Shown here: positions 20,300 through 51,553 of the stretch, piece after piece
How the letters are laid out: every line of letters starts with the position of its first letter
Position numbering within the stretch: position 1 is the first letter of the stretch
Origin: a bacterium
GTDB taxonomy: Bacteria > Oederibacteriota > JAJYGY01 > DAIDJD01
Assembly: GCA_035485275.1 (NCBI GenBank)
Contig: DATHOE010000037.1
Location: 8,701-72,700 of the forward strand
Reading direction: 5' to 3'
Length of the DNA: 64,000 bases
The notes under the pieces: model-generated
Seen by the model: only the letters and a program-made list of their open reading frames with translations
Database searches by the model: none
What the model was told of the DNA's origin: nothing
Program-made: the position numbers and the translations under genes

Positions 20300-20367
20300 A
20301 GTATTCCTTAAGTTGGAGTATTATTGATGAATCTATTTCGTATTTTTATATTTGTATTCCTGCTAGG

Positions 20368-20952: not shown

Positions 20953-20966
20953 TTATTGGGGGATCG

Positions 20967-21278: not shown

Positions 21279-21279
21279 C

Positions 21280-21633: not shown

Positions 21634-21786
21634 ATCTTTTGACGCTCTATGGTTTTCGTAGATTCTTGCTGGATTGAGACACTTCAGGCAAAGTCCGGCT
21701 AATGTTCAGAATGTAGGGAATAAAGGCATCCAGAGGTACATTCTATAGTGAGATTTCATACGCATGAGAGCCGGAGGTATGCATTC

Positions 21787-21963: not shown

Positions 21964-21973
21964 GGCCGTCGTT

Positions 21974-22020
21974 AAACCGGGTCATGCGTCCGTCCCTTGG
22001 GAAGCATGACTCGGTTTTTA
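21974..22020 (+). terminator. Intrinsic terminator
   Basis: AAACCGGGTCATGC...GCATGACTCGGTTT stem (one G-U pair) followed by TTTTT. Confidence 0.6.
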
Positions 22021-34037: not shown

Positions 34038-34713
34038 GGAGCTGCGCGCCCGGGCTGCTTAAGGGTTTGGTCCGCCTCGATGAGGGCGCCCGCTTCAATG
34101 GCGTCGCTCATCATGACCAGGAACGCCATTCCGGGTTTTTGAAGTTTCAAATCTTTGAACCCGGTGAGCGCCATTCCTTCCACATGCAGATGTTTGCCGC
34201 CGCTTCTCACGGCAAAAACGGGGAAGTTCAAGGGAACCGACGCATCGGCGACGGTCAGGGAACCGTGGGCCGTCACGGTCACACCCGATGTGTCCAATAG
34301 ATGCATGCTGAAGGGATCGACCGAAACCAGCGTGAACACGATGGCCGGGTGGTCCTTGGCGTGCACAATATCCTGGACCTTGCCGTCGCGTGTGGTGTTT
34401 CCGCTTTTCAAGGTCACCGGATCGATCTTCAGGATCCCCGTCACGGTCGGGCTCACGCCTTCAAATAGGCGGATTTCCCCGCTGATCCGGCCTTCGCGCC
34501 CGTGCACCGTCTCCGGGACAAAGAAATTCAGGGCATGGACGATATAGCGCGCGCTGCTCTTGGGGCCCACCGTGTAAGGAGTATAGCGTTCCGTCGCCGC
34601 GCCGCGGTCGGCCGGAACCGGGGAAGGCTTCGCCGGGCCGCCGGGATCCGCCCCCGCCGCGGCGAGGCCCAAGGAGGCGGCGCAAATTAGGAACAGCCCC
34701 ATCCATCGATTCA
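34034..34713 (-). CDS. YceI-like periplasmic polyisoprenoid/lipid-binding protein
   Basis: Signal peptide MNRWMGLFLICAASLGLAAA. YceI-like pattern (..VHALNFFVPETVHGREGRISGEIRL..TVTAHGSLTV..). Confidence 0.75.
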
Positions 34714-35949
34714 TGAGCGATCCTCCCAGCGTTTGAATATAAGTGAGGTGTTGATGCCGCCAAAGGCGAAATTGTTGGTCATCACCGCGCCGGTTTCGAG
34801 GGGACGCCAGGTTCCGCGCACATAATCCAGGTCCGCGCATAGGGGGTCCACGTTATCCAGATGCACGGTGGGGGCGACCCAAGCCTCCTTGAGCATGCCG
34901 ATGCTCATCCACGCCTCCAGGGCGCCGCAGGCGCCCAGGGTGTGCCCCATATAGCTTTTCAGCGATGAAATGGCCACGGGCCGGCGGAACACCATCGCCG
35001 TGGCCTGGGACTCGGTGATGTCCCCTTGCTGGGTCGCGGTGCCGTGCGCGTTGACATAGCCGATCTGCTCGGTGGCCAGCCCCGAATCGTCGACCGCCAT
35101 TTGCACCGCATGGGCCATGGTCTCGGCCGAAGGCTGGGTCACGTGGGCTCCGTCGCAATTGGTGCCGAAGCCGACCAGCTCGGCGTGGATACGGGCGCCG
35201 CGTTTGACGGCGTGGTCCAGTTCCTCCAGCACCAGGGTGCCGGCGCCTTCCCCGACTACCAGGCCGTCCCGGTCCCGGTCAAAAGGACGGGGGGTGGAAC
35301 CGGGCGAGGCGTTGCGCACGGAGGTGGCGAATAGGGTGTCGAAGACGGCGGCTTCGGTGGGCGTCAATTCCTCGCCTCCGCCGGCCAGCATGACCAGCTG
35401 CTTGCCCGTTTTGATCGCCTCATAGGCGTACCCGATGGCCTGGCTGCCGGAGGTGCAGGCGCTTGAGGTCGTGTAGACCCGGCCCTTCAGGCCGAAAAAG
35501 ACGGCGATGTTCACGGGCGTGGTATGGGGCATCATGCGAATGTAGGTCGTGGCGGTGATGCCATCGGTACTCTTGTCGATGAGCATGCGGGCGAAGTCGC
35601 CGACGGCGTCCGGGCTTCCGGTGGAGGACCCATAGGCGACGCCGGCTCCGCCTCCGCCCAACACGGGGTGTCCGACCAATCCGGCGTCCTGCAGGGCCAA
35701 GTCGCAGGCCCGCACCGCCATCCGCGAGACCCGCCCCATGGAGCGCGTGGCCTTTCGCGAGTAACGCTCAGGCGGAAGTTCAAAGGGCGCAGCCGGAGCC
35801 GCCAGGAGGGTGTTCAGGCCGCGATACTGCTCCCAGTCGGCCATCCGCACCACCGCGCCTCGGCCCTCGCGCAGGCGCTCCCGCACCGTGGCCCAGTCGT
35901 TGCCCAGGGGAGAAATACCGGCCATGCCCGTCACCACCACCCGTTTCAA
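34711..35949 (-). CDS. Beta-ketoacyl-ACP synthase (FabF/FabB-like KS) of the aryl-polyene-type cluster
   Basis: KRVVVTGMAG start, active-site SSACTSG, HGTAT, GHTLGACG. A TTG start overlaps the FabG stop (TTGA), which is preferred over a longer ATG-initiated ORF. Confidence 0.85.
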   Translation of the reverse strand: MKRVVVTGMAGISPLGNDWATVRERLREGRGAVVRMADWEQYRGLNTLLAAPAAPFELPPERYSRKATRSMGRVSRMAVRACDLALQDAGLVGHPVLGGGGAGVAYGSSTGSPDAVGDFARMLIDKSTDGITATTYIRMMPHTTPVNIAVFFGLKGRVYTTSSACTSGSQAIGYAYEAIKTGKQLVMLAGGGEELTPTEAAVFDTLFATSVRNASPGSTPRPFDRDRDGLVVGEGAGTLVLEELDHAVKRGARIHAELVGFGTNCDGAHVTQPSAETMAHAVQMAVDDSGLATEQIGYVNAHGTATQQGDITESQATAMVFRRPVAISSLKSYMGHTLGACGALEAWMSIGMLKEAWVAPTVHLDNVDPLCADLDYVRGTWRPLETGAVMTNNFAFGGINTSLIFKRWEDRS

Positions 35950-36671
35950 GCGCTCAGCCCTCCATCCACGGCCATGACCTGCCGCGTCACATAGGCCCCT
36001 TCGTCCGAAAAAAGCCATGCCACCAAGCCGGCCACTTCCTTGACCGTTCCCGGGCGCCGCAAGGGAACAAGGTCCATGACCTCGGGCGGCACCCCCGCGG
36101 CCATGTCGCCCTCGATCAGGCCGGGCGCCACGCAGTTGACGGTGATGGCGCGTTTGGCCAATTCCAGGGCCAGGGATTTGCTGGCGGCGATCAGGCCCCC
36201 TTTGGCGGCCGCGTAATTGGTCTGGCCCCGGTTGCCGACCAGGCCGGAGACGGAGGCCACGGACACGATCCTTCCTCCGCGGCGCAGCTGCACCATCGGC
36301 ATGACCAGGGGACGCAGCACATTGAAGAAGCCGTCCAGATCGGTCCTCAACACCGCGTCCCAGTCCTCCCCGCTCATGCCCGCCAGCGGCGCGTCGCGGG
36401 TGATACCCGCGTTGCATACCACACCCCATAGGGCGCCGTGGGACTCCACCTCGGCCTCCAAAACGGCGCGGGCGCCGGCGCGGTCCGCGACGTCGAAATA
36501 CAGTCCCCGCCCGCCGCCGCCCAGCGCGGCGACTGCCTCGGCCGCCTGTTCCGCGGCCGGAGAGGGCGTGCGGCCGTGGGTGAGCACCTCAAAGCCGGCC
36601 AGGGCGAGCCGCTCGGCGATCGCCCTGCCGATTCCGCGGCTGGACCCGGTGACTAGAACCCTTTCCTTCAT
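35946..36671 (-). CDS. fabG: 3-oxoacyl-ACP reductase (SDR family)
   Basis: VTGSSRGIGRAIA cofactor motif. Catalytic NAG...YAAAK. Confidence 0.9.
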   Translation of the reverse strand: MKERVLVTGSSRGIGRAIAERLALAGFEVLTHGRTPSPAAEQAAEAVAALGGGGRGLYFDVADRAGARAVLEAEVESHGALWGVVCNAGITRDAPLAGMSGEDWDAVLRTDLDGFFNVLRPLVMPMVQLRRGGRIVSVASVSGLVGNRGQTNYAAAKGGLIAASKSLALELAKRAITVNCVAPGLIEGDMAAGVPPEVMDLVPLRRPGTVKEVAGLVAWLFSDEGAYVTRQVMAVDGGLSA

Positions 36672-37141
36672 GGTCGCGACACCTCGTCAAGCGCCGCCAT
36701 GGTCGGCAGCTGGATCACGGTCAATTGGGCCTGGGCAAGTTCCATTCCGGTCGGGTCCTGGATGGAGCATTCCATGGCGCTGATCCCATTATCCTGTTGA
36801 AGCACCTTGCGCGCCACGATCCTCAGGGTCTCGCCGGCAAAAAATTGCTCCCGCCCGCTGCTGTAGGTGCGCGCACCCAGCAATAGGCCCGGCAGCACGT
36901 CACGGCCGGCCAATGCGCCCTCGACCCCGGAAAAGAGGCCCACGGTCTGCGCCATATACTCCAAGCCTATCCAGGCCGGGACGCCCCCTTCCTCGAAGAA
37001 GGGACTGTGTTCGCTGATGTCCACTTCGGCGACAAAGGCCTCGTCTTCCATGCCCGCGGCCCGTGTGAGCAGAATCATTGGATCGCGGTGCGGCATCAGT
37101 GCGTCCAGCGGCCGACGGAGGATTTCATCAAGATCGTTCAT
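36668..37141 (-). CDS. Hotdog-fold 3-hydroxyacyl-ACP dehydratase (ApeP/FabZ-like)
   Basis: 157 aa hotdog-fold protein (..HSPFFEEGGVPAWIGLEYMAQ..). ATGA overlaps on both sides. Confidence 0.65.
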   Translation of the reverse strand: MNDLDEILRRPLDALMPHRDPMILLTRAAGMEDEAFVAEVDISEHSPFFEEGGVPAWIGLEYMAQTVGLFSGVEGALAGRDVLPGLLLGARTYSSGREQFFAGETLRIVARKVLQQDNGISAMECSIQDPTGMELAQAQLTVIQLPTMAALDEVSRP

Positions 37142-38328
37142 GGTTTCTCGAGCACCAAGGACACGTTGCTGCCGCCGAATCCGAAGGAATTGGTCATGAC
37201 GCGGCGCAACCCGGAATGGCGCTCCACGCGCCGGACCAGTGCCAACGGAGGCAGGGCGGAATCGGTTTCCCCGTCAAAATAGTGCGGCGGCAGCCCTTGT
37301 TCCGCGGCCCGGCCCGCCAGGAGGTCCCAGCAGAGGGCCGCCTCGAGGGCCCCGGACGCGCCGAGGGCGTGTCCGGTCAGAGGCTTGGTCGAGGAGCAGG
37401 GCAGCCCCTCGGGAAACACACGCGCCGTGGCGGCGGCTTCCATGGAGTCATTTTGGACCGTGCCCGTGCCGTGCAGATTCAGGTATCCGACCTGGGCCGG
37501 TGCCAGGCCCGCGTCCTTGAGCGCCATGCGCATGGCGGCCTCGGCGCCCTCACCGCCGGGCAAAGGGGCGGACACATTGTAGGCGTCATTGGCGTCGCCG
37601 CAGCCCGCCAAACGTGCCGGCCCCTCCCTCCTGGTGACCAGGCAAAAGGCCGCGGCTTCGCCGATGTTGATGCCGTGGCGGTTGCGGCTGAAAGGGTTGC
37701 AGCGTTCCTCGGACAGGGCGCCCAGGGCCGCAAACCCGTGCACCGTGAAGCGGCATAGGGTGTCGACCCCGCCGCACAGCACGGCGTCGCATGCGTCCAA
37801 GCGCAGCAGGCGGCGCGCGGTGGCCAGGGCCTTGGCCGATGAGGAGCAGGCCGTGGAAACGGTCAGAGCCGGCCCACCCAGGTCCAGGGCCCGGGCCAAA
37901 AAGGCCGCCGGAGCGCCCAATTCCTGTTGATGGTAGCGGAAATCCGGCCCCAGGCCCCTACCCGATGCACGCCGGGCGAAGGCCCGTTCGGCTTCAAGCA
38001 TGCCCGAGGTGCTGGTGCCGACCACCACCGCCACGCGGGCCGCACCATGCCTGGCGAGCGCGTCCTCGAGGGCCGCCCTCAGCGGTTGCACCGCGGTCCA
38101 GGCCATGCGGTTGTTGCGGCTGTCGAAGTCGGGCTCCAAGCCGGGCGGATCGGCCAGGGGATGTTCCACCTCCCCCACAGGGAAGGCCTGCCCGGCGGGA
38201 CTGAAGCGCGCGCCCGCCTTCATGCCCGGGCTTAGGCCGGTGCGCATGGCCAGGGCCAGCGCATCGAGGCCCGCGCCCGCCGCCGACAGCACGTAAAAGC
38301 CGTGCAGGAAGGCCTCCGCCTTAGGCAT
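37138..38328 (-). CDS. Beta-ketoacyl synthase (ApeO-like KS)
   Basis: Active-site Cys TVSTACSSS, HGTGT, GHALGASG. Confidence 0.8.
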   Translation of the reverse strand: MPKAEAFLHGFYVLSAAGAGLDALALAMRTGLSPGMKAGARFSPAGQAFPVGEVEHPLADPPGLEPDFDSRNNRMAWTAVQPLRAALEDALARHGAARVAVVVGTSTSGMLEAERAFARRASGRGLGPDFRYHQQELGAPAAFLARALDLGGPALTVSTACSSSAKALATARRLLRLDACDAVLCGGVDTLCRFTVHGFAALGALSEERCNPFSRNRHGINIGEAAAFCLVTRREGPARLAGCGDANDAYNVSAPLPGGEGAEAAMRMALKDAGLAPAQVGYLNLHGTGTVQNDSMEAAATARVFPEGLPCSSTKPLTGHALGASGALEAALCWDLLAGRAAEQGLPPHYFDGETDSALPPLALVRRVERHSGLRRVMTNSFGFGGSNVSLVLEKP

Positions 38329-40627
38329 TGCGGGCCTCTTTGGGGGAGAAACAGGGGGCGCTCAGCCAGGCGGCCAGGCAGCCCACGCTCAAGACCAATC
38401 CAAAAGACCTGAGGGCGGGTGTGCCGCTGAATGCGAGGACGCCCACGGCCGCGATGTTGGTCAGGGCCGCCACATGCACCGCCAAGAATGAGGACAGGCG
38501 GTCGCCGCCGTCCTGCATGTAAATGCCGAAATCAATGCCCGTGCCCAGGAGCAGCAGGAGGGCTAGGAGAACGAACAGGTTCAGGGGCAGGCCGGCGAGG
38601 CCCAGCGTGCCCAGGGCGAGTACCGCACCGAGGACCGTGGGAGCACCGGCGGCGAGGGCCGCGGGGCCCAATCGCAGGGTCAAAAGTCCGAACACCACCA
38701 GGCTTCCGGCGGCGAGCATCCAAGACAGCAGGCGCCGCAAAGCGGCCAGCAACTCGCTCGCGCTCCGTAGCTGATCGATGTATTGGACGCCCGGCAACGC
38801 CGAGGCCGGTCCGGCCAAACGGTCGGCATCCGCGGGAGTCAGGCCCGGACCGGGCAAAACCATGGATTCCATGGTTCCATCCGGCTGGGACAGCCATAGG
38901 CCGCGATAGGGGATGGAGGCCGGATCCGCCAGCCATGCCTCGGGTGTCAGGGGCGCGTCGCCCTGCTTCAAGGCCGCGCGCAGCTTGAGCTCCAGGGCCG
39001 GTTGCCCTATACGCTCCGCAAGGCGTCGGGCCAGCCGGCCGGGCCCGAAAAGGGCGCGTTGCAGGGCCAGGCGGTCCGACTGCTGGCGGGCCAGGGACGG
39101 GACGAAGTCGCTCAGGGCCATCCATTGATGCGTCCGGCCGCCGTCCAAAACTTTGGTGAGGGCCTCTTCTCTGCGCAACAACTCCTGGGGATCGGCGGCT
39201 TGGACCACGAAAAATGAGGTGGCTGTGCCCAGGCCCGTCAGGGCCTGGGCCTGTCGCTGCTCTTGATCCAATGTTTGGTCATGGGCGTAAAGCAGCCGCA
39301 CGTCGTCGTCCACCCTCAGCCGAAGACATCCGACCCCGGCCAACAGAAGCAGTACCGCCAGGAGTCCTTTGAGCCAGGGCCGGCCCCAGCCAGGCCAGGC
39401 CCGGCGCAGCGCGGCGACCGCGGCGATCCGCGATTGCGGCGCCGACTCCAGGGACCGAGTCAGGCGAGGATACCACAGCACCACCCCGGCCCAATCCGCG
39501 GCGAGGCCCACCGCGGCAAACACGGCAACCTGCTTCAGCGCGGGTATTGGGAACAGGACTAGGGCGGCGTAAGCCAGCACTGAGGTGGCCATGGCGAGGG
39601 CCAAGGGGCCGACGGCCAGGCGGGCGCGGCGGTCCGAGTCCCAGGGTTTGTCGTAGATCCCGCTCAAAAAATACAGGCCGTAGTCGTCGGCCACCCCCAC
39701 CACCGTGCTGCCGAAGACCATGGCGACCGCGTGCACGCGCGACCAAAGGAGCAGGACCGCCGCCGCGCCGGCAAGGCACCCCACCATCGCCGGCAGGAGA
39801 GCAAGCAGGATGGGCCGGCGGCGGCGGAACGCGAACCAAAGGAGCACCGCCAGCAGCGCGGTCGACAGCGCGCCGACGCTGCCCACCTCGCGCATCGCCT
39901 GGCGGGCGGCCGCGTGTTCCTGGAACACGAAGCCCGAACGCAAGAGGCCTGTCGCACCCAGGCCGCGGGCGGCGGCGGCGGCCGTTTGAAGCGAAGCGTC
40001 AAAGGCGCGCATGGCCCCTGCGTCCAAGCTCGGCGCGGCGACCGCGTTCACCGCCACCCAGGTGAGGCCTCCGGAATCGATCTCGAGGTGGCCGTCACGC
40101 AGGCTTAAATTCCCGGACAGCGCGGCGTTTCCCTCAAGCCAGCGTCCGAAGGTCCCCAAAGGATCCGTTTCAAAGCTTCCGCCGAATCCCGGGGGGAGAT
40201 AAAGGCCCAGTTCAGCCTGCCGAAGCAGGCCGTCGCCCCCCGCGGACAAAAGGACGCGGTCCGGGGCGGACAAGAGGCCGGCGCGATGCGCCCGGAAACA
40301 GGATAGGGCCGTGGAAAGGGCGTTCGCGGGGACGGCGCAGACCACGGATGAAACGCCGTTTGTCCGGTGCAGGACAGTGGCGTAGCCCTCGGCCGCCCTT
40401 TCAGCGACCCTCGGATCCGCGGCGCCCACGAACACCTGGAAACGGCTTTCCACTTGCCGGCGGAGGGCCAGGGTCGCGGCCGCGGCCGCCGGATTGGGGG
40501 CTTTCCACGGCACCAACTCAAAAATACTGGTCTCCAGGCCCGCCGACGGAAGCCTCAGCGCCAGCCAGAGCAGGGCCGCGACAAATGCGGCCAGCCATGC
40601 GAATGCCAGGCCGCGCCTAAGGCCCAA
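38321..40627 (-). CDS. MMPL/RND-superfamily exporter (ApeM-like)
   Basis: 768 aa with two clusters of ~6 TM helices separated by periplasmic domains, as in MMPL exporters of aryl-polyene clusters. Confidence 0.75.
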   Translation of the reverse strand: MGLRRGLAFAWLAAFVAALLWLALRLPSAGLETSIFELVPWKAPNPAAAAATLALRRQVESRFQVFVGAADPRVAERAAEGYATVLHRTNGVSSVVCAVPANALSTALSCFRAHRAGLLSAPDRVLLSAGGDGLLRQAELGLYLPPGFGGSFETDPLGTFGRWLEGNAALSGNLSLRDGHLEIDSGGLTWVAVNAVAAPSLDAGAMRAFDASLQTAAAAARGLGATGLLRSGFVFQEHAAARQAMREVGSVGALSTALLAVLLWFAFRRRRPILLALLPAMVGCLAGAAAVLLLWSRVHAVAMVFGSTVVGVADDYGLYFLSGIYDKPWDSDRRARLAVGPLALAMATSVLAYAALVLFPIPALKQVAVFAAVGLAADWAGVVLWYPRLTRSLESAPQSRIAAVAALRRAWPGWGRPWLKGLLAVLLLLAGVGCLRLRVDDDVRLLYAHDQTLDQEQRQAQALTGLGTATSFFVVQAADPQELLRREEALTKVLDGGRTHQWMALSDFVPSLARQQSDRLALQRALFGPGRLARRLAERIGQPALELKLRAALKQGDAPLTPEAWLADPASIPYRGLWLSQPDGTMESMVLPGPGLTPADADRLAGPASALPGVQYIDQLRSASELLAALRRLLSWMLAAGSLVVFGLLTLRLGPAALAAGAPTVLGAVLALGTLGLAGLPLNLFVLLALLLLLGTGIDFGIYMQDGGDRLSSFLAVHVAALTNIAAVGVLAFSGTPALRSFGLVLSVGCLAAWLSAPCFSPKEARNA

Positions 40628-41192
40628 GCAGGGCCTCCTCGTCGGGGCTCAGCAAGCCCGGCCCCCGCTCCAGGTCCTTGAAATCGATCACCGACTCGTC
40701 ACCGCTGCTTTCCACGAGCCTGGCCCGCCGCGCATAGTCCGTGCCCTCGGTCTCGATGCTCCTGAAGACGCCGGCCAGGGGGCCCGGCCGAGGGGCCAGG
40801 ACGAGGCGCCAGGACCGCGCCCCACCCTCCTGCCGCAGCGTAAAGGTCCGTTTCAGGGCCTTGACGTCCCCGGTTAGGAGCTGCCGCATCAAGGTCAGGG
40901 CATCCGACCCGGAGGTCAGGCGGCGCCGCCCTGTTGCGCCCACTTCAAAGACGCCCTTGGAGGACACCACAACCGTGGCGCGCACGGGGCTCTCCGTGCG
41001 CCACACCAGGCCCCTTCCCGGCAGGAGCGCGAAGCTCCCATCGCTGAGCAGCGCTTTGTCCAGTCTCCTCAGCGTCTTGGACTGCACAAAACGGCCGTGG
41101 ATGGCCCCTTGAAGCGTCGGACTCGGCAGGGTCTCCTGACCCCAAAGTCCCGCGCCGCAGATGAGCGCCAAGAACAACATGCGGGATCTCAT
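40617..41192 (-). CDS. LolA-like outer-membrane lipoprotein carrier-fold protein
   Basis: Signal peptide, ~190 aa beta-rich. Position matches the LolA-like gene of aryl-polyene clusters. Confidence 0.6.
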   Translation of the reverse strand: MRSRMLFLALICGAGLWGQETLPSPTLQGAIHGRFVQSKTLRRLDKALLSDGSFALLPGRGLVWRTESPVRATVVVSSKGVFEVGATGRRRLTSGSDALTLMRQLLTGDVKALKRTFTLRQEGGARSWRLVLAPRPGPLAGVFRSIETEGTDYARRARLVESSGDESVIDFKDLERGPGLLSPDEEALLGP

Positions 41193-41608
41193 GGCTGTTT
41201 CCTCAGCGCGCGCTCCACGCGTTCGACCAATTCCGCGGGGCAGACAAAGTTCAGCTCCCCGGTGGCCGCGTTCACCGCGACCTGGGTGGTGCTGGCTTTG
41301 GTTAGGCGCAGGGAAGTCAGGGCGTCCCGAATCTCATAGGTGATGACCAGGCGATTCTCCCATTCCGCAAGTTCGGCCCGCACGACCAGGCGCTGCCCCA
41401 AAACAGCGGGCTTCACATAATGCAGACTCAGGTCCACCACCGGGAAGGACCACCCCGAGGCGCGCATCCGTTCATAGCCGTAGTCCAAGGACTCCAAGAG
41501 GGCGCCCCGGCCGATTTCCAGGAAACGCACGTAGTTCCCGTGCCAGACCACCTGCAGGGGGTCGATATCGTAAAATTCGGGACGGACTTCGACTTCGGCC
41601 CAGATCAT
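41189..41608 (-). CDS. Acyl-CoA/ACP thioesterase, 4HBT (YbgC-like) hotdog family
   Basis: MIWAEVEVRPEFYDIDPLQVVWHGNYVRFLE is a typical 4HBT N-terminus. Confidence 0.7.
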   Translation of the reverse strand: MIWAEVEVRPEFYDIDPLQVVWHGNYVRFLEIGRGALLESLDYGYERMRASGWSFPVVDLSLHYVKPAVLGQRLVVRAELAEWENRLVITYEIRDALTSLRLTKASTTQVAVNAATGELNFVCPAELVERVERALRKQP

Positions 41609-43146: not shown

Positions 43147-43183
43147 GATTCCACCCGAGGGTAGTGCGCGCATGGATACCGCG

Positions 43184-43951: not shown

Positions 43952-45587
43952 GTCTCCCCTCCTCTGAGGCGTAACGGAATTCGACGCCGCCCTGCGCCAG
44001 CACCAGGGAAAGGGTCACCCTCTGTCCGGGCCTCAGTGGCCGCATGAACTTCAGCGCCCGCAAGCCCCTGAAGGCGCCGTGGACTCCGAGGTGCTCACGC
44101 GCCGCCCGCACAGCCCAATGCAATTGCACGACGCCCGGCAGCAGAGGATGCCCCGGGAAATGCCCCTTGAACCAGCGCAGGGAAGCGGGCAGGAACAGGT
44201 CGATATCGACGCCCTGGTCCCGGTGTTGCACATAAAGGCATTCCGCCTCCCGGGTTTCCTCATCCATGAAGAGAGCCTCAAGCGCGGCCAGCGGATTCTT
44301 CCCCATGGAGTCCGCGGGCAAGGAGTCCACGAAGCGCCAACGTCGCGGAAGGGGCGCCACCCCGTCTTCATCCAAATGCCTGCGCAGTTCCTCGGACCTG
44401 GCCCGCCTTTCGGCCGCGCCTGCCGGAGCGGGATCCTTGAGGCGGACCACCGCGCCCAAAAGGTCCCGGACACCCTTGAGGAGCAGCACCCGGGCTTCCT
44501 CCACGGAGGGATGGGCGGCCAAGCGCCGCTCCAGGCCTGCCAGCGAGACCCGTTTTTCCTCGACCTTGGCGATGCGGTCGACTCTTCCCAGCAGATGGAA
44601 ACCGGGCTCCGCCGGCGTCGCCCGGTCCTCGGAGCGCGTCCATTCCGGCCTGTTTCCGTGCCGGGAACGCAGCGACAGGACACCATCCGGATCAACGCGG
44701 GTTTCCACCCCGGGCAGCGGGATCCAGGGATCCGCCTCAGTGCCACGCCTGCGCCAGCCGACCCCGCCGTTTTCGGAGCTGCCGTAGACCTCGACGGGCG
44801 TCTGTCCCAAAGCGGCCCGGCTGCGGCGGACCGCGTCGAAAGGGAGGGGGCCGCCTGAGGAGAACACCGCCACCAGGGAGGCCTTGGCCGGGGCCAGGAC
44901 CTCCAGGGAAGCCGGGGAGCCGCCGATGCGTTTGAGCAGCGCCGGGGAAGTCACCAAAACGCAGCGCCGTGCGCGGGCCGCGGCGGCCGCGATCTCCTCG
45001 GGCAGGCGCAGCTGCCCCGATAGAAAAGAGCGCGAGGCCGCGAGCGGCCAAAGGATCTTGAACAGGAGTCCGTAATAATGCTGGTGGGAAACCGATGACA
45101 AAAATGCGGCATCGCCCACCCCGTCACCGAAGGCCGTTTCCAAAGCCTCCAATTCGTTTTGGATGCAATGCGACGGTTTGGCGATCGCCGCGGGATCACC
45201 GCTGCTGCCGGAGGTGAAGACCACGATGGGCACGTCGGGCATGCGGGCGGGCCCTGGCGCCGGCAGGACGGGCAGGTCGGGCGGCGGCGTTTCGTCGCCG
45301 ATGAAGAGGCGCCCCACCTTCGAGCGCAATGAAGCCGCCGTTTCGCGGCCATTGTCCCCGGGCAGGTAGACGCTCACCCCGGCGGACCAGGCCCCCAAGA
45401 GGGCCGCGGCGAATTCAAAACCGTCGGCCAGGTGAAGGGCGATGGGATCCGGCGAACCGCTGAGGGCGCTTGCCCAGGCTGCGCGCCGGCGCGCCAGCCT
45501 GCCCCGGGTCTGGCCGGCGTCCAAGCCCACCGCCCGGTCGTCCGCCGGAAGTGCGAGCAGGCCGGGCAGGGAGATCAGAGGGGCCAT
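43923..45587 (-). CDS. AMP-dependent ligase (adenylation) fused to C-terminal FabA/FabZ-like hotdog dehydratase domain
   Basis: AMP-binding motif VVFTSGSSGDPAAIAKP. C-terminal HFPGHPLLPGVVQLHW matches the FabZ/ApeI hotdog motif. Confidence 0.75.
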   Translation of the reverse strand: MAPLISLPGLLALPADDRAVGLDAGQTRGRLARRRAAWASALSGSPDPIALHLADGFEFAAALLGAWSAGVSVYLPGDNGRETAASLRSKVGRLFIGDETPPPDLPVLPAPGPARMPDVPIVVFTSGSSGDPAAIAKPSHCIQNELEALETAFGDGVGDAAFLSSVSHQHYYGLLFKILWPLAASRSFLSGQLRLPEEIAAAAARARRCVLVTSPALLKRIGGSPASLEVLAPAKASLVAVFSSGGPLPFDAVRRSRAALGQTPVEVYGSSENGGVGWRRRGTEADPWIPLPGVETRVDPDGVLSLRSRHGNRPEWTRSEDRATPAEPGFHLLGRVDRIAKVEEKRVSLAGLERRLAAHPSVEEARVLLLKGVRDLLGAVVRLKDPAPAGAAERRARSEELRRHLDEDGVAPLPRRWRFVDSLPADSMGKNPLAALEALFMDEETREAECLYVQHRDQGVDIDLFLPASLRWFKGHFPGHPLLPGVVQLHWAVRAAREHLGVHGAFRGLRALKFMRPLRPGQRVTLSLVLAQGGVEFRYASEEGRHASGHIVLG

Positions 45588-45588
45588 G

Positions 45589-46149
45589 TCACAGCCCCTT
45601 GTCCTGTGTCCCTGTCCGGCCCAGCACCCGTTGGCGCACGAGCCATTCGGCCCCGAACATGATACCCATGAGCCCGTAGGCGATGGCGCCGTTGTAGAGC
45701 GCCCATACCCGGTCACTGGCGGCCACCGCCGTGGCCAGCGAAAGAGCCCCATTTAAGGCGAAAAAAAAGCACCAGGCCTTGGTCACCGTCCGCGTGTAGC
45801 GCACACCGGTTTCATCCAGGGGCCCCTGTCGAAGGGTCGCGATGCGCTCCACCGCGCTGGGCCCCCGCCACAAACTCAGGCCGAACACGGCCAAAAGGCC
45901 CAGGTTGACGCAGATGGGGTAGGCCCTCAAGGAAAGGTCCGCGTGCCTTAGCGCCAGCCAGGCGCAGGCCGCCGTCCCCAGGCCCAGCGCCAGCGATCCC
46001 CGCAGCTGCAGCCAGGGGCCCCATCTCCAAAGCGCCAGCCCCGCCAGAAGGCAGGCCAACAGCATCCGATTTACGCCCGTCCAGATCCCTATCAGCACCA
46101 GCGCCGGGAACACCAGGGCGGCGACCGCGGCCATGGACCGGGACTTCAA
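45589..46149 (-). CDS. Hypothetical integral membrane protein of the aryl-polyene cluster
   Basis: 186 aa with 5-6 TM helices. Its stop lies 1 nt from the downstream ligase start, and its start overlaps the ACP stop. Confidence 0.5.
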   Translation of the reverse strand: MKSRSMAAVAALVFPALVLIGIWTGVNRMLLACLLAGLALWRWGPWLQLRGSLALGLGTAACAWLALRHADLSLRAYPICVNLGLLAVFGLSLWRGPSAVERIATLRQGPLDETGVRYTRTVTKAWCFFFALNGALSLATAVAASDRVWALYNGAIAYGLMGIMFGAEWLVRQRVLGRTGTQDKGL

Positions 46150-46403
46150 TGCTCAGGACCGTTGACAAGGCCGTCGATGACGGAGACCACGTCGTCGAGC
46201 GTCCGCACCGCCTTGAAGGCTTCGGGTTGAATGCGTCGGCCGATAAGCTTCTGCATCTTCACCATGAGGTCGATGGCGTCGATGCTGTCGATGTCCAGGT
46301 CGGTGTAAAGGTCGGCATCCGGCCTCAGGAGCTCGCGTTTAATGCCGAAATTTTCGTGGAGCTCCGATTCCACCGCATGACGGATCTCGTCCCTAGTCTT
46401 CAT
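46146..46403 (-). CDS. Acyl carrier protein
   Basis: 85 aa with a DLDIDSID phosphopantetheine-attachment motif. Confidence 0.8.
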   Translation of the reverse strand: MKTRDEIRHAVESELHENFGIKRELLRPDADLYTDLDIDSIDAIDLMVKMQKLIGRRIQPEAFKAVRTLDDVVSVIDGLVNGPEH

Positions 46404-46514
46404 GATTTCCTAAGCGTAGTTGCGCAAGGTAATATAAGCTGCCGGCTCTAGAAGTGGGCGGCCGCACCCCAATACTAAGTACTGTAGAATAGGACACGCC
46501 CACATTTTGGTCAA

Positions 46515-46541
46515 CCGCACGGGGTTTTGGCCTCCGTGCGG
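46515..46541. promoter_or_regulatory. Stem-loop CCGCACGG-N11-CCGTGCGG in divergent ACP/halogenase intergenic region
   Basis: Perfect 8-bp inverted repeat located 30 nt upstream of the halogenase ATG. Confidence 0.3.
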
Positions 46542-46570
46542 CCCGTGTGTAGATTAGCGAGGATTGAACG

Positions 46571-47830
46571 ATGCCCCTGGACGCGGATGTGTTGATCATC
46601 GGAGCCGGCCCGTCCGGTTCATTGGCTGCGGCCAATCTGTTGCGGCGGGGCCACAGCGTGCTCATCGTCGAACGCGAAAAATTTCCGCGTTTTTCGATCG
46701 GGGAGAGCCTGCTCCCCCAAACCATGGGGCTGTTGGAGGAAGCGGGTCTGCTTCGCGCCGTGGTGGAGTCCGGCTTCCAGCACAAGAACGGCGCGGTGTT
46801 CGAACGCGGCCACGAACGCACCGAATTTGATTTTCGCGACAAATCCACGTCGGGCTGGGGGACCACTTATCAGGTGCAGCGCGCCGCCTTCGATAAGGCG
46901 CTCGCGGATGGGGTCGAACAGGCGGGAGCGCGGATCCTTTACCGCCACGAGATCACGGGCGCCCAGGTGGACGGAGATGCCGCCCGACTGGACCTTCGCG
47001 ATGCGGACGGGAAGGCCCTGCGGCTCCAGGGGCGTTTCGTGCTGGATGCCTCGGGCAACGCCAAGGTGCTGGCGCGGTTGCTTAAACTTGAGAGGCCGTC
47101 CGGATTCCCCATGCGGCAGGCCGTCTTCACCCATGTGGGCGACAACATTCCCCGGACCGGCGGCTTTGACCGTAACAAGATCCTCATCACCGTGCATCCG
47201 GAGCATAAGGACGTCTGGTATTGGCTCATTCCGTTCTCCAACGGGCGGTGCTCCCTGGGGGTGGTGGCGAGCAGCGTCTTCCTGGCTCCCTACGAAGGCG
47301 ACCTGGACGCGGGCCTGAAGGAGCTGCAGTTTCAGGCGCCCGGCCTCAAAACGCTGCTGAAGGACGCCCTGTGGGACACCCCCGCGCGCCAGATAAAGGG
47401 CTATTCCTCCGATGTTTCCTCCCTGTATGGGCCCAATTTCGCCCTCTTGGGCAATGCCGGGGAATTCCTGGATCCGGTTTTCTCTTCCGGAGTCACCATC
47501 GCCTTCAAGTCCGCCGCCTTAGCGGCCGAGCTCTTGCACCGGCGCTTCACGGGCGTCGCCGTGGACTGGGAAGCCGAATATTCAAAAACCCTGCGCCGGG
47601 GCGTGGACTGTTTCCGCGAGTTCGTCGAGGCCTGGTACCAGGGTACCTTCCAGGACATCATTTTCCACGGGAAACACGATCCCCACATCCGCCGCATGAT
47701 CTGCTCCATCCTGGCGGGATATGCCTGGGATCCCCTGAATCCTTACGTCGCGGATCCGCGACGTTTGAGGACCTTGGCGGGAATTTGCGCGCCAAACGGC
47801 CCCTTCGCGGAGGCGGGGAAGCAGCCATGA
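46571..47830 (+). CDS. Flavin-dependent halogenase (tryptophan-halogenase family)
   Basis: N-terminal FAD motif VLIIGAGPSGS and the WxWxIP halogenase signature (DVWYWLIPF). Confidence 0.8.
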   Translation: MPLDADVLIIGAGPSGSLAAANLLRRGHSVLIVEREKFPRFSIGESLLPQTMGLLEEAGLLRAVVESGFQHKNGAVFERGHERTEFDFRDKSTSGWGTTYQVQRAAFDKALADGVEQAGARILYRHEITGAQVDGDAARLDLRDADGKALRLQGRFVLDASGNAKVLARLLKLERPSGFPMRQAVFTHVGDNIPRTGGFDRNKILITVHPEHKDVWYWLIPFSNGRCSLGVVASSVFLAPYEGDLDAGLKELQFQAPGLKTLLKDALWDTPARQIKGYSSDVSSLYGPNFALLGNAGEFLDPVFSSGVTIAFKSAALAAELLHRRFTGVAVDWEAEYSKTLRRGVDCFREFVEAWYQGTFQDIIFHGKHDPHIRRMICSILAGYAWDPLNPYVADPRRLRTLAGICAPNGPFAEAGKQP

Positions 47831-48759
47831 CCGATACGGGCGGGCGGGACGGAGCCGCCCATTGGGCAGAGATGACGGAACTCGGCTCCGCCCTGGGTCT
47901 GGGTTTTCTTTATTTCATTTACCGTTGGTCCGGCCGCTGGCTCTTCCGGCTGTTCCTGCTGCCGGTGGTCGGGTATTTTTTGGTCTTCGCCGGAACGCAG
48001 CGGAGGGCGTCGAAGGAATACCTCAGGCGGGCCGGGGTTTCCGGACCGCTTTGGCTGGCCTTGCCGCGGCACTTCTGGGCTTTCGCCGAAGCCGTCCTGG
48101 ACAAGTTGGTTGCATGGAAGGGCGGCATCCGTTTGGAGGATGTCACTTTTGAGGGCCGCGGGCCGGTGCAGGACTTGCTGGCGCATGGGCGCGGTCTCCT
48201 GTTGATCGGCTCCCATCTGGGGAACCTGGAGGTGGGCAGGGTCATTGCCCGCCTGCGGCCGGGCCTTGTGGTGCATGTCCTGGTCCATACTCGCCATGCC
48301 GGGAATTTCAACCGCCTGCTCCATCGCCTGGACCCCAGCGCGGGGGTCAATCTGGTGCAGGTCTCGGAATTCGGCGCCGGACAGGCGGCCTGGCTGGCCG
48401 AAAGAATCGGGCGCGGCGAAGTGGTGCTGATCGCGGGGGACCGGCGGCCCTTGGGCAAGGGCCGGATTTTGAACGTCGAGTTTCTCGGCGCGCAAGCGCC
48501 CTTTCCCCAGGGGCCCTTCGCGATGGCCGCCGCCCTGGCTTGCCCGGTATACCTTATGTTTTGTCTGAAGCAAAAGCATGGTTTTCGAATCGTTTACGAA
48601 CCTTTTGCGGAGGAGATCCTCGCGGGGCGCGGGGCGCGGGGCGCGGCCCTCCAGAACGCGGCTCAGCGCTACGCCCTGCGCCTGCAGCACCAGTGCCTGC
48701 AGACGCCGTTTCAATGGTTCAATTTCTATCCGTTTTGGTCACAGGAAGGGCGGTCTTAG
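47827..48759 (+). CDS. Lysophospholipid/lipid A-type acyltransferase (LPLAT superfamily, HtrB/ApeD-like)
   Basis: N-terminal TM helix followed by an acyltransferase domain. ATGA overlap with the halogenase. Assignment rests on the overall pattern only. Confidence 0.55.
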   Translation: MTDTGGRDGAAHWAEMTELGSALGLGFLYFIYRWSGRWLFRLFLLPVVGYFLVFAGTQRRASKEYLRRAGVSGPLWLALPRHFWAFAEAVLDKLVAWKGGIRLEDVTFEGRGPVQDLLAHGRGLLLIGSHLGNLEVGRVIARLRPGLVVHVLVHTRHAGNFNRLLHRLDPSAGVNLVQVSEFGAGQAAWLAERIGRGEVVLIAGDRRPLGKGRILNVEFLGAQAPFPQGPFAMAAALACPVYLMFCLKQKHGFRIVYEPFAEEILAGRGARGAALQNAAQRYALRLQHQCLQTPFQWFNFYPFWSQEGRS

Positions 48760-49016
48760 CTCCGGTTTTTTTGGTCCGGGGCCTGCGAGGCCACAAAGGC
48801 CGCCAGGCTGCGCACGTTGGCGAAATGGCGCTTACTTTCCTGCGGATCCTGGGTCATTTTGAGCCCATATTTCTTCTGCAAGGCCACGCCCAGCTCCAGC
48901 GCGTCGATGGAGTCCAAGCCGAGGCCGCCGCCGAAAATGAGGGCTTCGCTGTCAATGGACTCGGGGGAGACATCTTCCAGTCTGAGCGCGCCGACGATCA
49001 GGACCTTGATTTCCAT
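48756..49016 (-). CDS. Acyl carrier protein (second ACP)
   Basis: GLGLDSIDALE motif. Start taken at MEIKVLIVG. Confidence 0.7.
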   Translation of the reverse strand: MEIKVLIVGALRLEDVSPESIDSEALIFGGGLGLDSIDALELGVALQKKYGLKMTQDPQESKRHFANVRSLAAFVASQAPDQKNRS

Positions 49017-49029
49017 TTCCAGTGCGCTC

Positions 49030-49854
49030 TCATCCACGTTCAAGCACCTCATCAAAACGCCGCTCCAGCAGGTCAATGAGTTCCCGGGCGGCAAGCCTGG
49101 TTTGGCCGCCATGGCGTTCGATCACGGGGGCGGTTTCGTACGCTGGGAACGCATGCACGCGCATGAGCATCTTCCGGACGGGCGCCAGATACCACCGCCC
49201 GCCGCGTTCCAAATTGCTCTCTCTGCAGTCGATGACGACCTGCGTCATAGTCGGGGCGCAGCGCAACGCCAGTTGGACTGCTCCGCTCTTTAGGCGCAGG
49301 GCTTTCCCGGGTGTTGATCGGGTTCCTTCGGGGAAGATCACGATGGAATTCCCGGACTCAAGGCTGCTTTTGCACAGACCCAAGGTCTTCTCGCCCCGGT
49401 CGTTGGGGATATAGCCGGCCAGGGACACGGGCCAGCGCATGGCCCAATGGCTTAACAGCGACGATTTCACGAGGCAATCGGCCCGGGGTACGATGCCGGC
49501 CAGCACCACGAAATCGATGAGCGTGGGATGGTTGGCGAGGATCAGCAGGTCTTTCTCCTGCAGGTGTTCCAGTCCCAGTATTTCCAGGTCGAGCACGCCC
49601 AGCGCCCGCATGAGCCAGGTGAAAAAACGGAAGAAAATCCGCGTCAGGGCTTTTCCGGCGCGTTTGCGCCTGCCCCGGCGGTCCGGGATAAGGAACAAGG
49701 GGGCCGCGAAAGGCATGGTCAGAAAACTTCCGGCCATGAAAACGCCGAAACACGCCAAGGTGGCCGCCGTCCGCCACGCGCGGTTGGCCAGCCTCAGGCC
49801 GGGATTCCCCAGGTCCAGCGATGCCTGCCGTTGAACCAATGCTCCTCTCCCCAT
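49030..49854 (-). CDS. 1-acyl-sn-glycerol-3-phosphate acyltransferase-like (PlsC/LPLAT)
   Basis: NHPTLIDFVV (HX4D block) and FPEGTRS (block III). Confidence 0.75.
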   Translation of the reverse strand: MGRGALVQRQASLDLGNPGLRLANRAWRTAATLACFGVFMAGSFLTMPFAAPLFLIPDRRGRRKRAGKALTRIFFRFFTWLMRALGVLDLEILGLEHLQEKDLLILANHPTLIDFVVLAGIVPRADCLVKSSLLSHWAMRWPVSLAGYIPNDRGEKTLGLCKSSLESGNSIVIFPEGTRSTPGKALRLKSGAVQLALRCAPTMTQVVIDCRESNLERGGRWYLAPVRKMLMRVHAFPAYETAPVIERHGGQTRLAARELIDLLERRFDEVLERG

Positions 49855-50693
49855 CCTTTGGCCAGCAGCCGGGCCACCGCCAAGGCCTGGGGCCCGGCGT
49901 CACCTCCGTCGTCCGCGGTTTCGTCTTCCAGTTTCATGTCGAGCGCAGTCCCGTCTTGGTGCCCCAACACGAGGGCGAGAGACCAGCCCGCCGCTTCGCC
50001 GTCCCAATAGGTGTCCAGGGCCTTCGGCGGGTCTTCGTCATGGTATACCGCCAGCACCCGCCCCGCGCCTTCATCCAGCAGCGCCTGGGATTCGAGCAAG
50101 GCCGCCGAAAAAGATTCCCGTCCGCCGGCCAGGGCGCTTGCCGGAGAACGGTCACCCCGGGCGATGGAGAAAAAACCGGCTGTCGCGTTGTGCACCGACA
50201 CGCTGAAATCCATGGGAGACATCGGAGTCCCCTGTGCCAGGGACTCCAAAAGGCCGGTCGAACGCAGGATCTGTCCGTGGCGTGATGCGAAGACGCTGGG
50301 AATGTTCGCGCCCTTGGGCGCCAGGGCGTAGGCCACTTCCAAGGCCAATCGGTCGCTGAGCCCTGCCCGCCGCCGAAGGATGGGAGGCACCGCGTCGGCG
50401 GGCGGCACCGCGCCGCTGGCCGGCCAAGGAACCGCTCTGTCCAGGCGGGAAGCGGACGGAGACCGCGCCCATTCCTGCCAGGCGCTCTTGTTTTCCAAGC
50501 CCGGGGCCCAAGCGGCCCAATCAAGTACGCGCAGCCGCAGTTTCAGGCATAGCGTCCCGTTCCCGCCGTCAGATGGCTCGCCCCTGATAGCCCCTCCCCA
50601 CAGTGCCCCGGATCCCTTTTTTTTCCAGAACAAGGATCCGCCCTTAGACCTGGAAACAATCGTAGCGCTTGGCCCCCTGTGGGGCCAGCCCAA
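49794..50693 (-). CDS. Beta-ketoacyl synthase N-terminal-domain-like protein (CLF/ApeC-like), start uncertain
   Basis: LKLRLRVLDWAAWAPGL resembles the conserved start of the KS-like partner in aryl-polyene clusters. No canonical start codon sits adjacent to this motif. The ATG at 50693 adds an odd 48-aa N-terminus. Confidence 0.45.
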   Translation of the reverse strand: MGWPHRGPSATIVSRSKGGSLFWKKKGSGALWGGAIRGEPSDGGNGTLCLKLRLRVLDWAAWAPGLENKSAWQEWARSPSASRLDRAVPWPASGAVPPADAVPPILRRRAGLSDRLALEVAYALAPKGANIPSVFASRHGQILRSTGLLESLAQGTPMSPMDFSVSVHNATAGFFSIARGDRSPASALAGGRESFSAALLESQALLDEGAGRVLAVYHDEDPPKALDTYWDGEAAGWSLALVLGHQDGTALDMKLEDETADDGGDAGPQALAVARLLAKGWGEEHWFNGRHRWTWGIPA

Positions 50694-50905
50694 TGCATTT
50701 TATCCCGTGCCCCCGGGCGCTGTTTTCACCGCCCCTCTTCAGGCCCAGGCGGGCCAGCGGGCGCAGGGAAGCAGGGGCAAGATCGGCCCGGATGCCGGCT
50801 CAATCCACCCGGGCCTCGGGCCGTCAGGAGCAGAAGCGGCGGGCCGGGGAGCAGGGAGTTCCATAGGACGTCCATGGACGAAGGGCCACCTAGATGAGCG
50901 CGGGC

Positions 50906-51316
50906 CTAATGGTAGCTGGCTTTGATGACGCTGCGAACGATTATTCCTCCGGCCAGGCACAGGCAGCGGTCGCGGCTAGCACTTTCCATGTTCCCGGCAT
51001 AGGTGCGCACGTCGACGACTCTCTCCCCCTTTTGGAGCGCCTTCTTTTGAAATTTCAGGAAACCGCCCAGCAGAGCCCAGCGGCAAGCCTCGGCCTTGGT
51101 TTTATTGAAACCGTTGGTGCTGACATGGGCGCTCTTTTCGTCGCCTCCGCGGGACTTTCCGAAGCTGAAAAGCTTGGGGTCCAAGCTTTCACCCCGCTTA
51201 TTCTCAAGCTGGGCTATGGAGTCGAATGTGACGCTCACCACCTGGTTCTCCGCCCGGACAGGGATCGACGCGCATAGGCTTAGGGCTAGCAGGCAGGCCC
51301 AAACTGGGTATTTCAT
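50906..51316 (-). CDS. Hypothetical secreted protein, first gene of the cluster transcript
   Basis: Signal peptide MKYPVWACLLALSLCASIPVRA. 136 aa. Confidence 0.45.
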   Translation of the reverse strand: MKYPVWACLLALSLCASIPVRAENQVVSVTFDSIAQLENKRGESLDPKLFSFGKSRGGDEKSAHVSTNGFNKTKAEACRWALLGGFLKFQKKALQKGERVVDVRTYAGNMESASRDRCLCLAGGIIVRSVIKASYH

Positions 51317-51469
51317 GGTGGTCTCCGAGGAGGGCGGGATTAAGCGGGGTGGGTGACGAATGCTGCTTTTGCAGGCGGATTCGAATTTCGAACTATTCTA
51401 ACCCATCCGAATGTCATTGGAACATAAGCGTTTATCAGGCGCGCTCATTTTCACGTAGCCGGACCTTCA

Positions 51470-51497
51470 TTGTCGCATAAGAATGATTATGCGACAA
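51470..51497. promoter_or_regulatory. Perfect 11-bp inverted repeat TTGTCGCATAA-N6-TTATGCGACAA
   Basis: Lies ~150 nt upstream of the first gene of the aryl-polyene-type cluster. Confidence 0.45.
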
Positions 51498-51553
51498 TAT
51501 TGTTTTGGGGCATAGCCATCCGGAAACCTGGATGGCTGCCCGCCCAGGCTTCC

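Follow-up and report, generated by a model that had tools for sequence, protein, structure and literature searches.

What would be made by a bacterial gene cluster that combines an aryl polyene (APE) assembly line with its own aromatic ammonia-lyase and a flavin-dependent halogenase, and how unusual is such a cluster? The question is raised by a 64,000-nucleotide stretch of contig DATHOE010000037.1, from a bacterium of the Oederibacteriota (the whole stretch is called the window here), in which a sequence-only reading had placed a block of this kind at 34711–51497 and judged its architecture to be unusual. Our results agree that the block is a single cluster but redraw its limits: the core lies at 34711–50693, and putative accessory genes extend it to 51316 on one side and to 34034 on the other. 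The cluster with its accessories, about 34.0–51.3 kb, is intact. We consider it likely that the block is a functional cluster for the biosynthesis and export of an APE or APE-lipid (APEL) type product and belongs to a widespread subtype with its own 4-methylideneimidazole-5-one (MIO)-dependent lyase and halogenase. As judged from the sequence, its product is most likely a tyrosine-primed, halogenated APE lipid, a yellow pigment bound to the membrane.

Collinearity with the E. coli ape locus

Open reading frames (ORFs) were called with guidance from the GC content of third codon positions (GC3), and families were assigned from Pfam and NCBIfam scans; all positions are those of the window. The scans recovered every part of the earlier component list, and both the MIO lyase, with its GASGDL motif, and the WxWxIP halogenase lie inside the block (Table 1). 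For comparison with known systems, a segment spanning the ketosynthase (KS) and ketoreductase (KR) genes was used in a blastn search for distant matches, and the window proteins were then compared by tblastn with one annotated Escherichia coli ape locus (L082). Of 5,426 complete E. coli genomes, 825 had a match to the KS-KR segment, at the ape locus, and sixteen window products proved to be collinear with E. coli apeC–apeR at 30–59% protein identity. The shared order, C-D-E-F-G-H-I-J-K-L-M-O-P-Q-R, is that of the apeA–R clusters of E. coli CFT073 and Xenorhabdus doucetiae, which make APELs, and the gene roles used here come from studies in E. coli and Xenorhabdus (PMC8253772; bioRxiv 10.1101/2020.12.19.423268). 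Common to the E. coli locus and the window are a pair of KS and chain-length factor (CLF), two acyl carrier proteins (ACPs), a KR, two dehydratases and an adenylating loader, as well as acyl- and glycosyltransferases for lipid anchoring, a thioesterase, a LolA protein and an exporter of the resistance-nodulation-division (RND) type. The core of the ape biosynthetic gene cluster as given by Grammbitter et al. (apeO/R, apeE/F, apeC, apeI/P, apeQ and apeM) is present in full.

The residues on which catalysis depends are likewise intact: each ketosynthase has its catalytic Cys and His, each ACP its serine and the dehydratase its His motif, and the MIO triad is complete. The dehydratase part of the ApeH–ApeI fusion described below carries the hotdog motif GHFPGHPLLPGV. 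Because the match to E. coli is gene for gene and in the same order, and the catalytic residues are intact, we identify the block as an APE cluster. Its prediction as an APE/flexirubin-type type II polyketide synthase (PKS)-lipid cluster that encodes its own MIO lyase and flavin-dependent halogenase is thus supported.

The two loci also differ. The E. coli cluster is without a lyase, its 4-hydroxybenzoate starter coming from UbiC, and without a halogenase, whereas the window has both. Conversely, E. coli has ApeA, the ApeB methyltransferase and the DUF3261 protein ApeN, and the window has none of the three. In the window, the counterparts of ApeH and ApeI are fused and that of ApeJ is split, with the acyltransferase half of ApeJ relocated together with the halogenase.

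Distribution of the subtype and comparison with flexirubin and xanthomonadin clusters

APE clusters are regarded as being among the most widespread bacterial biosynthetic families, and their products guard against oxidative stress and affect biofilm formation. We scanned species-representative genomes with the lyase, which yielded 80 loci, and compared the window proteins with these by tblastn. Lyase homologs at 55–60% identity number in the thousands, and most of the 80 loci contain nearly the whole cluster. All 15 core genes and the lyase are present and collinear in 59 of the 80. A halogenase ortholog (50–64% identity) is encoded in 48 of these complete loci, on the same strand and in the interval that separates apeM from apeO. 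Among the hosts are Herbaspirillum, Collimonas, Janthinobacterium, Massilia, Stenotrophomonas maltophilia, Pseudoxanthomonas, Arenimonas, Shewanella, Marinobacter, Pseudoalteromonas, Corallococcus and one Fibrobacteres metagenome-assembled genome (MAG). Since so many loci share the collinear core, and many of them belong to high-GC Beta- and Gammaproteobacteria, the claim that the architecture is unusual in a high-GC background fails. The block aligns end to end with genomic APE clusters that carry both lyase and halogenase, among which we found no chemically characterised member.

The window cluster is therefore an unremarkable representative of an APE family that is very widespread, with nothing specific to the locus that would surprise a specialist, and it adds one more intact example, from a MAG. 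What novelty there is seems to lie in the lyase-plus-halogenase subtype, which has apparently never been chemically characterised, and so belongs to the family and not to this locus. Although very common, the subtype carries only generic annotations ('histidine ammonia-lyase', 'FAD-dependent oxidoreductase'), so that one lyase assay and one pigment mass spectrum would annotate thousands of genes. In published antiSMASH surveys of a Stenotrophomonas and a Pseudoduganella genome, an 'arylpolyene' region is reported whose nearest known cluster is APE Vf and which may belong to the lyase-plus-halogenase subtype. One locus of the set, L023 (Nocardiopsis yanglingensis A18, Scaffold6), is labelled as an actinomycete and carries a complete APE cluster of proteobacterial type with Stenotrophomonas-like identities, which suggests assembly contamination or a recent transfer.

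The nearest named relatives of the cluster are Fibrobacteres MAGs, and the closest relatives overall are two metagenomic contigs, L084 and L081, whose lyases are 84% and 82% identical to that of the window. In the other clusters with lyase and halogenase recovered by the scan, the halogenase lies between apeM and DUF3261 or apeO on the same strand, and an LpxL-type acyltransferase gene follows the GT2 glycosyltransferase gene. In the window and in both L084 and L081, by contrast, the halogenase and the LpxL-type gene form an inverted block between the two ACP genes. More distant relatives have the canonical order: L083 (72%) is without a halogenase and has an O-methyltransferase gene nearby, and a 68% relative has the halogenase. 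The window additionally has no DUF3261 gene. In E. coli, L081, L083 and the P0014 contig, this gene, for the LolB-like ApeN, separates apeO from the exporter (or halogenase) gene; in the window it is cleanly absent, and the apeM stop overlaps the apeO start at 38321–38328. Of the set for outer-membrane localisation (ApeL, ApeM and ApeN), the window has an ApeM homolog and a weak LolA match.

Both L081 (274–2380) and L084 (129–2235) carry, upstream of apeC and divergent from it, a ketosynthase of the StlD/DarB family (528 bits; cut-off, 450) and a flavodoxin-like neighbour of 306–310 aa. These pairs suggest that flexirubin-like resorcinol esters may be made in a lineage outside the Bacteroidota. 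They also lend some support to the first of the alternatives that we weighed, that the window holds a flexirubin-type cluster, in which a dialkylresorcinol, the product of DarAB genes elsewhere in the genome, would be esterified with the halogenated aryl-polyene acid. Its two closest relatives, with the same inverted block, have DarB and its neighbour; the KR and LolA proteins match flexirubin models, at sub-threshold scores; and the best Protein Data Bank (PDB) match of the halogenase is from Cytophaga hutchinsonii. More generally, the flexirubin clusters of Chitinophaga pinensis and Flavobacterium johnsoniae (with the tyrosine ammonia-lyase (TAL) FlxA, the ligase FlxY, and DarAB) resemble the window in using an in-cluster MIO lyase to provide a tyrosine-derived starter to a polyene synthase resembling type II fatty acid synthases, in the mixed motifs of that lyase and in having LolA, exporter, glycosyltransferase and acyltransferase genes, and chlorinated flexirubins are known (PMC3992019).

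Nonetheless, we regard a flexirubin as an unlikely product. As the sequence-only reading had noted, the window is without DarAB: tblastn with the L081 proteins found no match to DarB or to the gene in the DarA position (both E < 0.01), nor to DUF3261, anywhere in its 64 kb, and the place of DarB is taken by the genes for a small secreted protein, a CIA30-like protein and GH42. The DarB pair was either lost from the window or never there. DarB is nearby in only 1 of the 80 genome loci (L030), and the lipid-anchoring set of the window (ApeD, GT2 and the LpxL-type acyltransferase) is intact. Further differences from flexirubin clusters are that the lyase is not a FlxA equivalog (290 bits; cut-off, 700) and that the loader is an ApeH-type fusion and not a stand-alone CoA ligase. 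The window cluster is thus a derived variant, which specifies a non-resorcinol APE lipid or has its darAB genes elsewhere in the genome.

The xanthomonadin cluster, with that for the yellow pigment of Lysobacter, shares with the window a type II PKS with a KS and a Cys-less partner, and Xanthomonas, too, encodes a halogenase, its outer membrane containing a brominated aryl polyene (PMC3691225). The gene orders differ, however, and the xanthomonadin starter is a 3- or 4-hydroxybenzoate made by the chorismatase XanB2, in whose stead the window has the MIO lyase; family scans found no chorismatase-like gene among the ORFs of 34.0–51.3 kb, each of which falls into another family or encodes the small secreted protein.

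The ammonia-lyase, the halogenase and the predicted product

The lyase has its MIO triad, GASGDL, at residue 143, and its IYG, NGT, YSIR and NQD motifs align with active-site residues of RsTAL, with conserved counterparts of the catalytic Tyr, Asn, Tyr/Arg and Asn-Gln. Against the PDB, it scores highest with RsTAL (237 bits), closely followed by SgTAM, a tyrosine aminomutase (235 bits), and histidases and phenylalanine ammonia-lyases (PALs) score only slightly lower. It also falls below the cut-off of every NCBIfam equivalog model, including those for HutH (TIGR01225; 376.6 versus 539.15) and for the BagA/FevW TALs (391 versus 1000). These nearly equal PDB scores suggest that the lyase forms a clade of its own. 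At the selectivity switch defined by Watts, it has Tyr84-His85 where RsTAL has His89-Leu90; among 82 family members, 46 have YH and 31 have FH at this position. At the site defined by Berner, it reads HNQD, in which the Gln marks the TAL/PAL state and histidine ammonia-lyases (HALs) have Glu, and this is invariant in 82 of 82 family members. The same mixture, with a motif 1 that is HAL-like and a motif 2 of the TAL/PAL type, is found in FlxA, the proven TAL of the flexirubin pathway, which prefers Tyr over Phe about 1000-fold and is inactive on His (Schoener et al., PMC3992019). In all 59 complete related clusters the lyase is embedded at the same position. It is best assigned as a predicted, though unproven, TAL. 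Of the two in-cluster starters proposed previously, tyrosine (giving 4-coumarate) is therefore the better reading, and histidine is disfavoured by the Gln and by the score below the HutH cut-off.

The lyase might instead be a PAL or an aminomutase, which would give a phenyl head group that is unsubstituted or otherwise substituted in place of 4-hydroxyphenyl. At the position aligned with His89 of RsTAL the lyase has Tyr, whereas 31 of 82 relatives have Phe, the PAL-type state, and the scores of SgTAM and of AdmH (227 bits) nearly match that of RsTAL. We consider this quite improbable on several grounds. The His after the switch Tyr aligns with His93 of SgTAM, which we take to be a phenol-contacting residue. 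The halogenase co-occurs equally with YH (24 loci) and FH (21 loci), and flavin-dependent halogenases need an activated ring, for example that of a phenol. When the loci were compared for a dependence of halogenase presence on Tyr or Phe at the switch, none was found (halogenase present in 24 and absent from 10 loci with YH; present in 21 and absent from 1 with FH). FlxA, with its non-canonical motif 1, still favours Tyr (PMC3992019), and all APE head groups known so far are hydroxylated (PMC8253772). A predicted TAL thus remains our assignment for the lyase.

The halogenase has all four motifs of flavin-dependent halogenases: GAGPSG (residue 11), K72 in GFQHKNG, aligned with the Lys of the CndH segment GFPIKRGG, WYWLIP (216) and FLDPVFSSG (299). 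The previous call of a halogenase is borne out by these motifs, which make it a bona fide flavin-dependent halogenase by sequence with a predicted halogenating activity. Its top PDB match, 3nix (333 bits), is a C. hutchinsonii flavoprotein with no assigned function, and the next ten matches are all named halogenases, including CndH, ChlB4, Mpy16/Bmp2, CmlS, PltA and RadH. The electron-rich ring that flavin-dependent halogenases need is consistent with a phenol as the head group. Several of the halogenases among the PDB matches act on carrier-bound substrates, and by analogy we infer that the phenol ring may be halogenated on the ACP.

That the enzyme is a plain flavin monooxygenase, a hydroxylase that would leave the pigment without halogen, is slightly less probable still. 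The family, as large as that of the lyase, has public annotations that say only NAD(P)/FAD-dependent oxidoreductase, the closest structure is functionally unassigned, and the cluster has no flavin reductase gene. In contrast, WxWxIP, FxxPxxSxG and the catalytic Lys are conserved, the matches that follow 3nix are to named halogenases, and p-hydroxybenzoate hydroxylases reach only about 30 bits. A halogenase is accordingly the reading that we carry forward. The weakest alternative, that the lyase is a housekeeping HutH histidase in the block by chance, has in its favour the HutH model score of 377 bits and frequent automatic annotation as histidine ammonia-lyase. We reject it as very improbable: the score falls short of the cut-off of 539, the HAL-diagnostic site has Gln and not Glu, 59 of 59 clusters keep the lyase in place, the lyase gene overlaps or directly adjoins its cluster neighbours at both its start and its stop codon, and no hut genes (hutU, hutI) are near.

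Gene content is observed directly, and the steps of the following model are drawn by homology. The MIO lyase would deaminate L-tyrosine to 4-coumarate, and the ApeH-like domain, fused to the ApeI dehydratase, would load the aryl acid onto the ApeE-like ACP. Iterative malonyl extension by the ApeO KS with Cys-less ApeC, the ApeQ KR and the ApeI and ApeP dehydratases would then give a conjugated polyene. The halogenase would chlorinate or brominate the phenol ring, probably on the carrier, with reduced flavin supplied in trans. ApeR and the second ACP would build a second acyl chain, and the PlsC-type acyltransferase, GT2 and the LpxL-type acyltransferase (the split ApeJ) would place the pigment on a glycolipid or phospholipid anchor, with the ApeK thioesterase aiding release. 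Finally, the ApeG-like protein, the ApeM-like RND pump and the LolA-like protein would carry the product to the outer membrane.

Several points weigh against a functional cluster with this product. The canonical His-Leu switch of TALs is missing from the lyase, which does not in itself preclude TAL activity, since FlxA has no such switch either, and the substrate of an MIO lyase is not reliably predictable from sequence (PMC3992019). The top NCBIfam model for the ApeH–ApeI fusion is 4-coumarate-CoA ligase at only 84 bits (cut-off, 335), a weak likeness. The cluster contains no gene for a flavin reductase or a phosphopantetheinyl transferase. The window is without ApeN, although E. coli and all three context-resolved relatives that cover the position keep it. 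In the literature, we found no characterised APE cluster with lyase and halogenase outside the Bacteroidota, the gene content of the Vibrio fischeri APE cluster not being covered.

With these points in mind, we put forward only tentatively the full combination for this poorly sampled lineage, in which a tyrosine-primed, halogenated APE lipid distinct from flexirubin (a resorcinol ester), from xanthomonadin (hydroxybenzoate starter) and from the methylated APELs of E. coli and Xenorhabdus reaches the outer membrane without a LolB-like ApeN. If it is correct, the MIO lyases with a [Tyr/Phe]-His switch in such clusters would be an unrecognised TAL subfamily, and the chemotype would be common to dozens of proteobacterial genomes with the lyase-plus-halogenase subtype.

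Gene inventory, accessory genes and the rest of the window

The halogenase and the LpxL-type acyltransferase are encoded on the plus strand, as an inverted pair between the two ACP genes, and all other cluster genes are on the minus strand. Read 5' to 3', the latter are those for the small secreted protein, the KS-N/CLF-like protein, the PlsC-type acyltransferase, the two ACPs, the ApeG-like protein, the AMP-ligase/dehydratase fusion, GT2, the MIO lyase, the 4HBT thioesterase, the LolA-like protein, the RND/MMPL exporter, the ApeO-like KS, the ApeP dehydratase, the FabG-type KR, the ApeR-like KS and the YceI-like protein (Table 1). Many junctions overlap by 4–8 nt, three of them as ATGA start/stop overlaps, which indicates operons; the ATG of the ApeK-like thioesterase, for example, overlaps the lyase stop codon. 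The segment at 50.5–51.7 kb yielded no sigma-70-like promoter. An alignment with L081 places the true start of the ApeC-like gene probably between 50498 and 50693. The LolA-like protein has no tblastn match to E. coli ApeL despite its position. The LpxL-type acyltransferase was rejected as an ApeA; its match in E. coli is to the C-terminal half of ApeJ. Two antisense ORFs, 46393–46866(-) and 47743–48714(-), were discarded as spurious; they have no family match and overlap the halogenase and acyltransferase genes. The flanks are unrelated to the cluster, with GH42, pirin, HAD and transaldolase genes on one side and a TPR/beta-barrel protein gene on the other.

Table 1. Features of the cluster and its borders, with protein identity to the E. 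coli ape products by tblastn
Feature	Position	Strand	Family match or motif	Identity to E. coli
Perfect inverted repeat, 12-nt arms, 6-nt spacer	51469-51480 / 51487-51498	.	ATTGTCGCATAA N6 TTATGCGACAAT	
Small secreted protein, 136 aa, signal peptide	50906-51316	-	No Pfam or NCBIfam match	
ApeC-like CLF partner, KS N-terminal domain, Cys-less	49794-50693	-	PF13723 9.4e-53; no Cys/His motifs	ApeC 30%
ApeD-like PlsC-type lysophospholipid acyltransferase	49030-49737	-	PF01553 2.2e-20; ATG at 49737	ApeD 41%
ApeE-like ACP, GLDSI attachment site	48756-49052	-	PF00550	ApeE 49%
LpxL-type acyltransferase	47827-48759	+	PF03279 3.3e-07; ATG overlaps halogenase stop (ATGA)	ApeJ, C-terminal half, 38%
Flavin-dependent halogenase, variant-B type	46571-47830	+	PF04820 6.9e-25	
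ApeF-like ACP, DIDSI attachment site	46146-46403	-	PF00550 2.3e-08	ApeF 43%
ApeG-like membrane protein, COG4648 family	45589-46134	-	E. coli match; no Pfam match	ApeG (COG4648) 41%
ApeH-like adenylating/ACP-loading enzyme fused to ApeI-type dehydratase	43923-45587	-	PF00501 + PF22818	ApeH 31%; ApeI 39%
GT2 glycosyltransferase (N-terminal half of ApeJ)	43184-43951	-	PF00535 6.2e-10	ApeJ, N-terminal half, 46%
MIO-dependent aromatic ammonia-lyase, 513 aa, predicted TAL	41605-43146	-	PF00221 484 bits, 6.1e-145	
ApeK-like 4HBT/YbgC-type thioesterase	41189-41608	-	PF03061; TIGR00051 70.8 bits, above cut-off	ApeK 47%
LolA-like periplasmic carrier, ApeL position	40617-41192	-	PF19574 23.1 bits (at cut-off); LolA2_flexi 30 bits (below)	
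ApeM-like RND/MMPL exporter	38321-40627	-	No Pfam match; weak HpnN/HAE3 matches	ApeM 30% (over 769 aa)
ApeO-like ketosynthase (C161, HGTGT, GHALGASG)	37138-38328	-	PRK09185 464 bits, cut-off 407	ApeO 41%
ApeP-type hotdog dehydratase	36668-37141	-	PF22817 3.5e-17	ApeP 37%
FabG-type ketoreductase, ApeQ-like	35946-36671	-	PF13561 4.4e-50; FabG model 340 bits	ApeQ (FabG2) 52%
ApeR-like ketosynthase (C165, HGTAT, KSYMGH)	34711-35949	-	PRK09116 684 bits, cut-off 470	ApeR 59%
YceI-like lipid/polyisoprenoid-binding periplasmic protein	34034-34570	-	PF04264 7e-09	

Two genes at the ends of the core may be accessory members. Homologs of the small secreted protein (25–37% identity) lie directly after apeR in 25 of the 80 related loci, all of these being proteobacterial, whereas in the window the gene precedes apeC. 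The family, of signal-peptide proteins of about 135–150 aa without a Pfam or NCBIfam model (for example L001 20712–20912 and L078 20841–21257), shares the C-terminal pattern KTN-x-F-x-K...AC-x-W...GA-x-AVV...C-x-AG. From this recurrence, the protein is probably an accessory member that extends the cluster to its 51316 limit. The YceI-like gene is directly downstream of apeR both in the window and in L081 (19685–20317), where its product is 61% identical, and a lineage-specific carrier for the pigment lipid is a possible role for it.

The perfect inverted repeat that had been described upstream of the first gene is real and does lie upstream, but its arms are 12 nt long and not 11. On one side of it is the stop of the CIA30-like gene (51554) and on the other the small secreted-protein gene, which starts 152 nt downstream; the longest ApeC ORF starts about 780 nt downstream. 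The window has 5 perfect inverted repeats of at least 11 nt with a loop of at most 20 nt, against about 1 expected, which indicates that the repeat is non-random, yet not specific to the cluster. It has a T-run only on the side of the plus strand, the wrong strand for a canonical terminator of the upstream, minus-strand CIA30-like gene, and this role was rejected. The repeat-bearing region had no blastn match in L081, L083 or L084, and in L081 and L084 DarAB-like genes occupy that place. The four other repeats are at 16066–16106, 18394–18415, 25494–25525 and 52242–52277; that at 18394 is a 22-nt palindrome without a loop at the edge of a low-GC island.

The glucose-6-phosphate isomerase of the window matches proteins of Planctomycetes, Acidobacteria and Desulfobacterales alike at about 80% identity and is therefore uninformative for taxonomy. 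Elsewhere in the window, a cobalamin riboswitch (76 bits; 4743–4889, plus strand) is directly upstream of a cobalamin salvage and lower-ligand operon (4858–13652, plus strand) that encodes a CobC-like phosphatase, an aminotransferase, CobQ, CbiB/CobD, CobO, CobT and a CobB/CbiA-like amidase. Divergent from it, a fluoride riboswitch (40 bits; 4613–4687, minus strand) is immediately upstream of a CLC-family channel gene (3309–4625, minus strand), presumably that of a CLC-F fluoride exporter. The low-GC island, at 18400–22000, has a GC content of 0.44–0.47, against about 0.65 elsewhere, and contains only short ORFs, the largest of those tested having no Pfam match. A gene for a Cu/heavy-metal P-type ATPase borders it on one side and one for an OprB-type porin on the other, and the island may have been acquired horizontally.

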